From IMG/VR virus record IMGVR_UViG_2737471821_000011, positions 1-35,243 of that record: a stretch of DNA of 35,243 nt; one strand, written 5' to 3'. A program made the position numbers and the translations under genes. This DNA comes from a virus. Taxonomy: Duplodnaviria; Heunggongvirae; Uroviricota; Caudoviricetes. How positions within the stretch are numbered: the stretch's first letter is position 1; each line of letters starts with the position of its first letter. This document shows positions 33,204 through 33,515 of the stretch, one piece after another. The notes beneath the pieces are model-generated. The model did not search any database and was not told the origin of the DNA. It saw nothing but the letters and a program-made list of their open reading frames with translations.

Positions 33204-33359
33204 GGTGGTTATCTCCACTTAGTGATTTTAATCACCACCGCAACGCCAATTACTGGTGGTGAACTGGACAAGGTTGGCGTACCGGCCTAAGTGGTACCGG
33301 CGTCCTTTCGGACCCCTGCCCAGCCCACCATAATTCGGATATGGCTGTGCTTAACGCAT

Positions 33360-33481
33360 AAAAAAACCACGTCTGGCGTGGTATGCGCCACTTAGTAACT
33401 CGGGACGCCAATCCCGGCACTGGATTTTGCCAGTGCCCGATTACTATGGCACAAGAGGAGTGCGATGTAAATTTACCGCAA
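33360..33481 (-). ncRNA. Candidate structured leader or small RNA upstream of the antirepressor
   Basis: Putative promoter and operator at ~33473-33515, then stem-loops (GGGCACTGG...CCAGTGCCGGG), a single-stranded ACUAAGUGG element and an intrinsic terminator (CCACG-CCAGA-CGTGG plus U7, forward A run ~33360-33366). No plausible ORF. Confidence 0.3.
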
Positions 33482-33487
33482 AGGTAA
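33473..33487. promoter_or_regulatory. Operator-like inverted repeat TTACC-GCAAA-GGTAA
   Basis: Perfect copy adjacent to the -10 of the promoter below. Confidence 0.6.
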
Positions 33488-33515
33488 ATATAAGCACTCA
33501 TCTTGGTAATTTCAA
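33488..33515 (-). promoter_or_regulatory. Putative sigma70-type promoter of the antirepressor leader
   Basis: Minus strand TTGAAA - 16 bp - TTATAT. Confidence 0.45.

Follow-up and report, generated by a model that had tools for sequence, protein, structure and literature searches.

What is encoded in the stretch of DNA that separates a gene for an 85-amino-acid (aa) protein from the antirepressor gene ant on the minus strand of the tailed-phage record IMGVR_UViG_2737471821_000011? The analysed DNA, positions 1 to 35,243 of that record, is referred to here in its full length as the window. Within it, the 85-aa gene ends with a stop at 33519 and the ant AUG lies at 33203-33201, both on the minus strand. 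As an earlier reading made from the letters without database searches (the sequence-only reading) had held, there is no credible open reading frame (ORF) between the two, only a 100-aa ORF with a TTG start (33250-33552) and several 34-aa ORFs in a mechanical listing. In agreement with the structured leader that had been proposed there, the 306-nucleotide (nt) stretch has a folding z score of -6.1, with none of 100 shuffled sequences folding as well. The answer that we arrive at is the following. Namely, the minus strand of the 33204-33515 interval holds a gene for an IsrK-type RNA and a gene for a C4 antisense RNA, both upstream of ant, and the interval is very probably a complete immI RNA module of the type known from phage P1, situated in an E. 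coli prophage similar to epsilon15 and phiV10 (Uetakevirus). The region is 98% identical to that of Escherichia phage HEMP4 and 81% identical to that of phiV10, is found in many enterobacterial phages, and occurs in 457 of the 5426 complete genomes of E. coli (approximately 8%), with a match of 100% in E. coli VG48B2 and ETEC1747.

The two RNA genes were found by an Rfam scan of the whole window at the curated gathering thresholds, to which a permissive scan was added for sub-threshold families. The isrK family of Hfq-binding RNAs (RF01394) is matched over its full model, positions 1-77, with 67.2 bits against a threshold of 50, and the C4 family likewise passes its threshold, with 66.0 bits. 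The sequence-only reading had suggested an Rfam search as one way of examining its proposal. It had also described the layout as one that was not recognised, which does not stand: both families score above their thresholds, and the elements align one for one with immI of P1. Similarly, what had been taken for a single terminated leader of about 120 nt is a riboregulator, as suspected, but one made up of two RNA genes: one for a terminated RNA of the IsrK type, the other for a separate C4 RNA about 75 nt long. Because both RNA genes pass their Rfam thresholds, because the layout is that of P1, and because c4 and isrK have been reported next to a BRO-N gene in APSE phages, the module is the already known c4 system of P1, in an ordinary copy that carried no annotation. 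Its features, together with the two promoters and the regulated gene, are the following, in the order in which the minus strand is read.

33487-33515, minus strand: upstream promoter-like site TTGAAA-17-TATATT, agreeing with the consensus at 10 of 12 positions.
33473-33487, strand-neutral: operator-like palindrome TTACC-N5-GGTAA, its centre about 42 nt upstream of the conserved start, abutting the -35 hexamer.
33443-33471, minus strand: conserved promoter TTTACA-17-CATAGT, which has an extended TG and is situated some 45 nt downstream of the TTGAAA-17-TATATT site.
33360-33436, minus strand: IsrK-type small RNA, comprising the c4-a1b1 motif, b1 and an intrinsic terminator, from the Rfam isrK match.
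33405-33411, minus strand: a1, UUGGCGU, in the loop of hairpin 2 (33401-33416), recognised as a repeat and by its complementarity to a'.
33388-33396, minus strand: b1, ACUAAGUGG, with the pairing core CUAAGUGG, between hairpin 2 and the terminator.
33360-33382, minus strand: intrinsic terminator, ACCACG-CCAGA-CGUGGU (33382-33366) followed by U7, from terminator prediction.
33252-33335, minus strand: C4 antisense RNA gene, Rfam C4 (RF01695), threshold 45 bits, full model positions 1-87.
33286-33296, minus strand: b', UACCACUUAGG, the loop of the second C4 hairpin, with the pairing core CCACUUAG at 33287-33294, from family match, complementarity and fold.
33274-33280, minus strand: a', ACGCCAA, in the single-stranded junction that leads from the b' hairpin to the 3' strand of the outer stem, from family match and complementarity.
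33232-33262, minus strand: alternative hairpin of the 3' strand of the C4 outer stem, UCACCACC, with the downstream GGUGGUGA, holding a2 in its loop; 8 base pairs (bp), 100% complementary, -21.1 kcal/mol.
33243-33249, minus strand: a2, UUGGCGU, just 3' of C4, a repeat with a 7-bp complement to a'.
33213-33223, minus strand: b2, ACUAAGUGG (33215-33223), overlapping the ant Shine-Dalgarno sequence GGAG (33213-33216), 9 nt before the AUG.
32493-33203, minus strand: ant, an antirepressor of 236 aa with an N-terminal Bro-N domain (Pfam Bro-N, 69.7 bits; PHROG 130 'anti-repressor Ant', E = 5.7e-56).

The IsrK-type RNA has the architecture of its family, namely two 5' hairpins, a spacer and a Rho-independent terminator, the last of these found independently of Rfam, and it also has a promoter of its own, whose predicted start, at approximately 33436, is the first base of hairpin 1. 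Folded alone, the RNA reaches -31.7 kcal/mol (z = -3.15). Hairpin 1 (33437-33416, GGCACUGG/CCAGUGCC) is the stem-loop that the sequence-only reading had noted; it is real, with a stem of 8 bp rather than 10, and in homologues this stem comes in 31 versions, 87 of 98 units having it fully paired. Overlapping the first two isrK hairpins is a sub-threshold match to a further family, c4-a1b1 (RF03163), which Rfam describes as "a1, b1 targets of C4 antisense RNA" and which is matched over its full model at 33397-33449 on the minus strand (44.3 bits, E = 7.8e-10). The layout of that family is also the one seen here: a pair of hairpins whose second loop contains a1, then b1 directly 3' of them, and C4 downstream. 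The terminator lies where it had been read, about 120 nt from the start belonging to the TTGAAA-17-TATATT site that had been chosen as the promoter; measured from the conserved promoter's start, the distance is about 77 nt. Of 98 distinct homologous units, 97 have a hairpin with a U-run downstream of b1, and the hairpin occurs in 51 different sequences.

The C4 RNA is equally typical. Its fold (-43.5 kcal/mol, z = -5.0) has a minimum free energy structure that is the structure of the family, including a GAAA tetraloop: a long outer stem surrounds the tetraloop hairpin and a large-loop hairpin, and a single-stranded junction follows. By homology to P1, the mature RNA is predicted to extend from 33329 to 33255, i.e. 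over 75 nt from GGUGGG to CACCACC. Both the AU|GGUGG junction at the 5' end and the CACCACC tail at the 3' end are conserved in homologues, and they coincide with the annotated ends of mature C4 in P1.

What could such an RNA pair with? The 9-mer ACUAAGUGG has two exact copies in the 35 kb (33388-33396 and 33215-33223) against 0.14 expected, and just 1 of 100 shuffles reached two; these are b1 and b2, in keeping with the repeated 9-mer and its second copy at the ant Shine-Dalgarno sequence that had been described. The middle element was said to be complementary to both copies, which is correct for 8 of the 9 positions between 33286-33294 and either copy, the ninth being a G.A mismatch. Accordingly, we take as the b' core CCACUUAG, which is 100% complementary over 8 nt to CUAAGUGG of b1 and b2. 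The local duplex of b' with b1 or with b2 is predicted at -12.6 kcal/mol each. The triplicated 9-mer of the sequence-only reading, that is b1/b'/b2, is in this sense confirmed, but a second triplet had been missed. Namely, a1 (UUGGCGU), a' (ACGCCAA) and a2 (UUGGCGU) form an analogous set, with local duplexes predicted at -20.1 kcal/mol for a' with a1, where complementarity reaches 10 of 11 positions, and at -15.7 kcal/mol for a' with a2. At the ant ribosome binding site, C4 would thus face complements of 8 bp (b':b2) and 7 bp (a':a2). As a separate observation, the similarity of b2 to b1 extends to 19 nt with 79% identity (33205-33223 against 33378-33396): the extended sequences are ACUAAGUGG-AGAUAACCAC at b2 and ACUAAGUGG-CGCAUACCAC at b1, and more than the pairing core is common to the target and decoy regions. 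This longer similarity may reflect an origin by duplication or a shared local hairpin.

Covariation in homologues had been proposed as a check. Two motif scans of IMG/VR gave about 200 related loci, and b codes, a codes and C4 stems all co-vary in them. For the b code, 77 distinct isrK-C4-ribosome binding site units were compared, with loops taken by stem-anchored extraction and target regions by fixed windows. They contain 46 different b' loops, each matching its own b1 and b2. Over all 77 units, the cognate complementary runs have means of 8.0 bp (b1) and 8.75 bp (b2), compared with 4.45 and 5.59 bp for non-cognate combinations, and runs of at least 8 bp are found in 74% (b1) and 84% (b2) of cognate as opposed to 1.5% and 9.4% of non-cognate combinations. 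With one representative for each of the 46 loops, the cognate means are 8.2 (b1) and 9.1 bp (b2) against 4.6 and 5.8 bp after permutation, and none of 5000 loop permutations reached the observed cognate means. The values for phiV10 from this permutation run were left unused, its loop having been extracted short; the triplet of phiV10 is CUAAAAGG/CCUUUUAG, and the phiV10-type b is CUAAAAGG. On its 3' side, b2 ends 6-11 nt ahead of the start codon in most loci; in the few exceptions it covers the start codon itself or the first codons.

The a code was examined with a scan unbiased towards the a sequence, a1 and a2 being located by a longest-complement search. Sixteen groups of a' 8-mers correspond to at least 12 different a codes, and every group has one exact complement roughly 78 nt ahead of C4 (a1) and a second one 5-12 nt past its stem (a2). 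Complements of at least 7 nt occur in 88% (a1) and 94% (a2) of cognate pairs, compared with 5% and 3% of non-cognate ones. As for the C4 stems, in 74 sequences including that of P1, 98.6% of the cells are paired, with compensatory change in 14 of 23 pairs; none of 500 shuffles was as good, and slid controls were paired at 31-46%. RNAalifold on a MAFFT alignment recovered 2 of the 5 pairs of the b' hairpin stem, a low number because the variable loop shifts the register. Taken as a whole, the comparative evidence for the module is strong at the level of sequence. It also bears on the possibility that the repeats are due to chance or that the region codes for protein. Namely, the 100-aa TTG ORF does appear in the mechanical listing, but it crosses the promoters, the terminator and both RNA genes, the conservation follows an RNA pattern with compensatory changes of pairs, and the repeats co-vary in dozens of lineages. 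We therefore attach practically no credence to an explanation by chance or coding. As side observations from the same loci, the viral contig L149 (9774-11106) has three copies of C4 spaced 656 nt apart, and the viral contig L027 has two complete isrK-C4-antirepressor modules (at 3965 and 7227) whose b codes are different.

How would transcription of the module be controlled? The sequence-only reading had put a promoter at TTGAAA-16-TTATAT, and the site is indeed present, as TTGAAA-17-TATATT; however, it is not the conserved one, which is TTTACA-17-CATAGT. In homologues the upstream site has no fixed conserved position; in the window it lies at the same position as P2c4 (P51a), the C1-controlled upstream promoter of P1. 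By contrast, in 86 distinct upstream sequences a -35 element TTGACA or TTTACA and a -10 element TATATT, CATAGT or TATAGT are found 6-8 nt before hairpin 1. The position of TTTACA-17-CATAGT is equivalent to that of P1c4 (P51b) of P1, and the mapped start of IsrK in Gifsy-1 is the first base of hairpin 1.

Between the two promoters sits the palindrome that had been read as an operator, and this reading has gained support. The pattern TTACC-N5-GGTAA occurs in 10 copies in the window, where 0.06 would be expected, and nearly all of them are intergenic; on the plus strand they start at 6481, 6543, 7255, 9586, 9648, 12042, 15203, 32406, 33473 and 33853, a second copy (33853-33867) thus being near the first. 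A fixed-spacing operator pattern with at most 3 mismatches gave no match, two copies differing by an indel, and a variable-gap pattern recovered them. In homologues with a TTTACA -35 element, the half-sites are kept and the spacer is variable. What is more, three of the copies flank a 194-aa HTH_3 protein without a peptidase domain (6615-7199, minus strand), which is probably the prophage repressor. Ten mostly intergenic palindromes, three of them flanking this HTH_3 protein, therefore make it probable that the palindrome is the repressor's operator. The copies look like a dispersed operator set, comparable by analogy to the C1 operators of P1.

With these elements in place, the following sequence of events can be proposed. 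Transcription would begin at the conserved promoter, at approximately 33436, next to the dispersed palindromic operator. Most transcripts would stop at the terminator (33382-33360), yielding an IsrK-type RNA of about 77 nt in which a hairpin loop exposes a1 and the spacer after it contains b1. Transcripts that read through would carry C4. In P1, C4 is cut from a longer transcript by RNase P, and by extension from that system RNase P would cut here before G33329, with the 3' end at CACCACC (33255), giving a C4 RNA of about 75 nt. Homology and covariation suggest that this RNA pairs with b2 through its b' loop and with a2 through its a' junction. Since the Shine-Dalgarno sequence of ant lies partly within b2, such pairing would occlude GGAG (33213-33216) and block translation of ant both in cis and in trans; in P1, Rho-dependent polarity ensues when translation is blocked. 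The antirepressor would in this way be kept off in the lysogen and also on incoming phages with the same a/b code, and the hypervariable b code together with the less variable a code would be the determinant of immunity specificity. The IsrK-type RNA, carrying identical target sites, would act as a competitor or decoy for C4 and, when present in excess, would relieve repression. The sequence-only reading had likewise supposed control of the antirepressor at the RNA level, with the middle element pairing either with the upstream copy or with the ribosome binding site, which matches the competition of a1b1 and a2b2 for C4 in P1 that was proposed by Citron & Schuster 1990, as relayed in the Weinberg 2010 supplement.

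Going one step further, the IsrK-type RNA may be a dedicated trans-acting decoy, or "anti-antisense", for C4, such that the ratio of terminated to read-through transcripts sets the antirepressor output and could be shifted by a repressor binding the palindrome or by SOS transcription from the 85-aa gene with its LexA box. This we put forward as a tentative possibility, not quite as probable as its negation. Decoy competition fits, by analogy, the approximately 140-fold activation of anrP translation by IsrK expressed in trans in Gifsy-1 (Hershko-Shalev et al. 2016, PMC4825925). If true, the decoy reading would join c4 immunity of P1 and IsrK activation in Salmonella in one mechanism, and orf45 would be reinterpreted as a C4 gene.

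That said, several points weigh against the module as we read it. The c4-a1b1 score is 2.4 bits under the gathering score of 46.7. In the IsrK-type RNA folded alone, part of b1 is engaged in a weak 5-bp helix with two G.U pairs. Pseudoknot-free cofolding of the full RNAs (RNAcofold, duplexfold) predicts no loop-loop contacts and so lends no independent thermodynamic support, since models of this kind cannot represent kissing interactions. The mechanism published for Gifsy-1 needs translation of orf45, and orf45 is inoperable in the window. Finally, for this phage, processing by RNase P, activity in trans and the function as a decoy are all inferred.

Could the leader instead be a purely cis-acting switch, in which alternative pairings of b', to b1 or to b2, combine with the internal terminator to set the expression of ant and no separate trans-acting RNA is made? 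The terminator does lie inside the leader, and the alternative 8-bp hairpin between the C4 3' strand and downstream sequence would offer a second conformation, which, as modelled, can form only in the unprocessed read-through transcript. What is more, the long transcript of Gifsy-1 has a cis structure in which a1 is paired to a' (PMC4825925). On the other hand, the middle element matches the C4 family over its full length, and C4 is a processed and trans-acting RNA in P1; what is more, its conserved AUGG 5' and CACCACC 3' ends coincide with those of mature C4 in P1. Forty-six b codes whose three copies change together are what one would expect of a trans-acting specificity determinant, and Gifsy-1 yields a processed species of about 80 nt (PMC4825925). 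For these reasons, a switch acting in cis only appears improbable to us.

A second alternative is the Gifsy-1 model as published, according to which IsrK opens the long transcript, orf45 is translated, and the antirepressor is translated only by coupling to it. The locus is homologous to isrK-orf45-anrP, where IsrK activates anrP about 140-fold (PMC4825925), and in this respect the model would be a natural choice. However, the frame that starts at the C4 AUG in the window (AUG GUG GGC ...) runs into a UAG after 14 codons, in the b' loop and about 80 nt before the ant AUG, and in this sense the coupling of an orf45 to the antirepressor, which accompanies isrK in Gifsy-1, is not found in the window. 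A stop overlapping the downstream start (AUGA) is present in only about 6 of 77 loci, and ant has its own GGAG, which b2 directly overlaps. We consider the published model very improbable for this locus, well below the level of a serious contender.

One may also think of P22, in which sar, an antisense RNA encoded in cis and transcribed from the other strand, prevents translation of the antirepressor at its ribosome binding site. As is proposed for the window, a small RNA acts at the antirepressor ribosome binding site there; unlike sar, the regulator in the window is encoded upstream on the same strand and would pair via short loop sequences, and sar is not homologous to it. An RNA of the sar type, transcribed on the plus strand through the ribosome binding site of ant, could draw on a weak terminator-like hairpin on the plus strand at 33204-33219, but this is the mere complement of the hairpin formed by b2 and the Shine-Dalgarno sequence, there is no promoter-like site on the plus strand in 32400-34400, and both RNA family matches are on the minus strand. 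This explanation is hardly tenable. The protein-coding ORF 33250-33552, a sar-like antisense RNA and coupling of the orf45 type have all three been rejected, and we continue with the reading of the interval as an isrK-C4 module.

The gene context deserves a few words. The gene regulated by the module is ant, which follows C4 on the same strand. On the other side, the product of the 85-aa gene (33519-33776, minus strand) shares 43% identity with the C-terminal domain of Ant (E = 2e-16 over residues 155-228) and belongs to PHROG 450. A near-consensus LexA box, TACTGTATAAATATACAGTT, lies at 33794-33813, directly upstream of this gene, whose product is probably a small antirepressor induced by the SOS response, of the kind known from Gifsy phages. 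Transcription coming from the 85-aa gene would enter the isrK/C4/ant module. Elsewhere in the window there is a tRNA-Arg gene with the anticodon TCT (14804-14880, minus strand, 73 bits).

What, then, is gained by recognising a known system? Its practical value is the annotation of C4 and isrK RNAs that carry no label. Among the best eight E. coli matches, the only listed features are 'BRO-N domain-containing protein' and 'hypothetical protein', with no non-coding RNA feature, and the phiV10 record has at this place a terminator and a misc_feature only, again with no non-coding RNA feature. The a/b codes, with 46 b codes among 77 loci, amount to a large combinatorial set of private immunity specificities, and they would determine heteroimmunity via repression by C4 in trans. 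Of specialist interest is the homology of Gifsy-1 IsrK/orf45 to a1b1/C4 of P1, in which the pairs validated in Gifsy-1 are those of a1 with a'. In the portions of the literature consulted, no paper was found that links the two, and the papers that use both terms do not connect them. Hershko-Shalev et al. 2016 (PMC4825925) appears to make no link to P1 c4, as the text names phage P1 zero times, the term 'c4' having lain outside the text search. The identity of IsrK/orf45 with a1b1/C4 may, in other words, not yet have been stated in print.

Turning to the known systems themselves, the closest template is immI of P1 and P7 (Citron & Schuster 1990, 1992), whose order in the GenBank record of P1 (NC_005856) is the C1 operator Oc4, P2c4, P1c4, a1, b1, the 77-nt C4 RNA, a2, b2, icd and ant1/ant2. 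Judged by sequence and order, the window is homologous to it element by element: both have a pair of hairpins, the second carrying a1 in its loop, and after them b1, a terminator-like hairpin, the C4 architecture, a2, and b2 at the Shine-Dalgarno sequence. In Rfam, P1 scores 68.8 bits for C4, about equal to the 66 bits of the window, 51.0 for c4-a1b1 and 35.1 for isrK. It is in isrK that the two differ, the window being above the threshold with 67 bits and P1 below it with only 35. As an observation on P1 itself, the segment between b1 and c4 (48230-48311) has a terminator-like hairpin with a U-run and gives this 35-bit isrK match over the full length; judging by this sequence, a short terminated RNA may be made from the a1b1 segment of P1 as well. 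The codes differ as well, a being UUGACAG and b GUUAGUG in P1, as compared with UUGGCGU and CUAAGUGG in the window. In P1, b2 lies over the icd ribosome binding site and ant1 is translationally coupled to icd, whereas in the window there is no icd and b2 lies on the Shine-Dalgarno sequence of ant itself. A C1 operator at the c4 promoter of P1 has its parallel in the palindrome at the isrK/C4 promoter of the window; the former is an annotated 17-bp site and is asymmetric, and the latter is the TTACC-N5-GGTAA palindrome. Finally, the carriers are different: a 94-kb plasmid prophage in the case of P1, and a 39-kb podovirus-type prophage in the case of the window.

In APSE phages of Hamiltonella, according to the published description in Rouil et al. 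2020 (PMC7313666), c4 and isrK lie beside a BRO-N gene, upstream of which a' and b' have matching sequence; these phages belong to another lineage and have another host than the phage of the window, and the likeness is drawn from that description. The likeness to Gifsy-1 (NC_010392) is more detailed. There, between antQ and anrP, isrK scores 79, C4 69 and c4-a1b1 48.1 bits, and the same order of elements, the same type of promoter and terminator, an antirepressor downstream and an identical a code (UUGGCGU/ACGCCAA) are found; the b code, UCACCG, differs from that of the window. In this Gifsy-1 locus (34076-34316, minus strand), orf45 has 45 codons: it opens with the AUG in the 5' stem of C4, spans C4, a2 and b2 and ends with AUGA over the anrP start, whereas the corresponding frame in the window is closed by a stop after 14 codons. 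In Gifsy-1, the compensatory pairs G28:C162 and G31:C159 (PMC4825925) map onto a1:a' pairs, and STnc1160, an RNA of about 80 nt processed from the orf45 region (PMC4825925), has a size and position that fit C4. In sequence and arrangement, IsrK/orf45 of Gifsy-1 and a1b1/C4 of P1 are one and the same module, which the window carries in a further copy.

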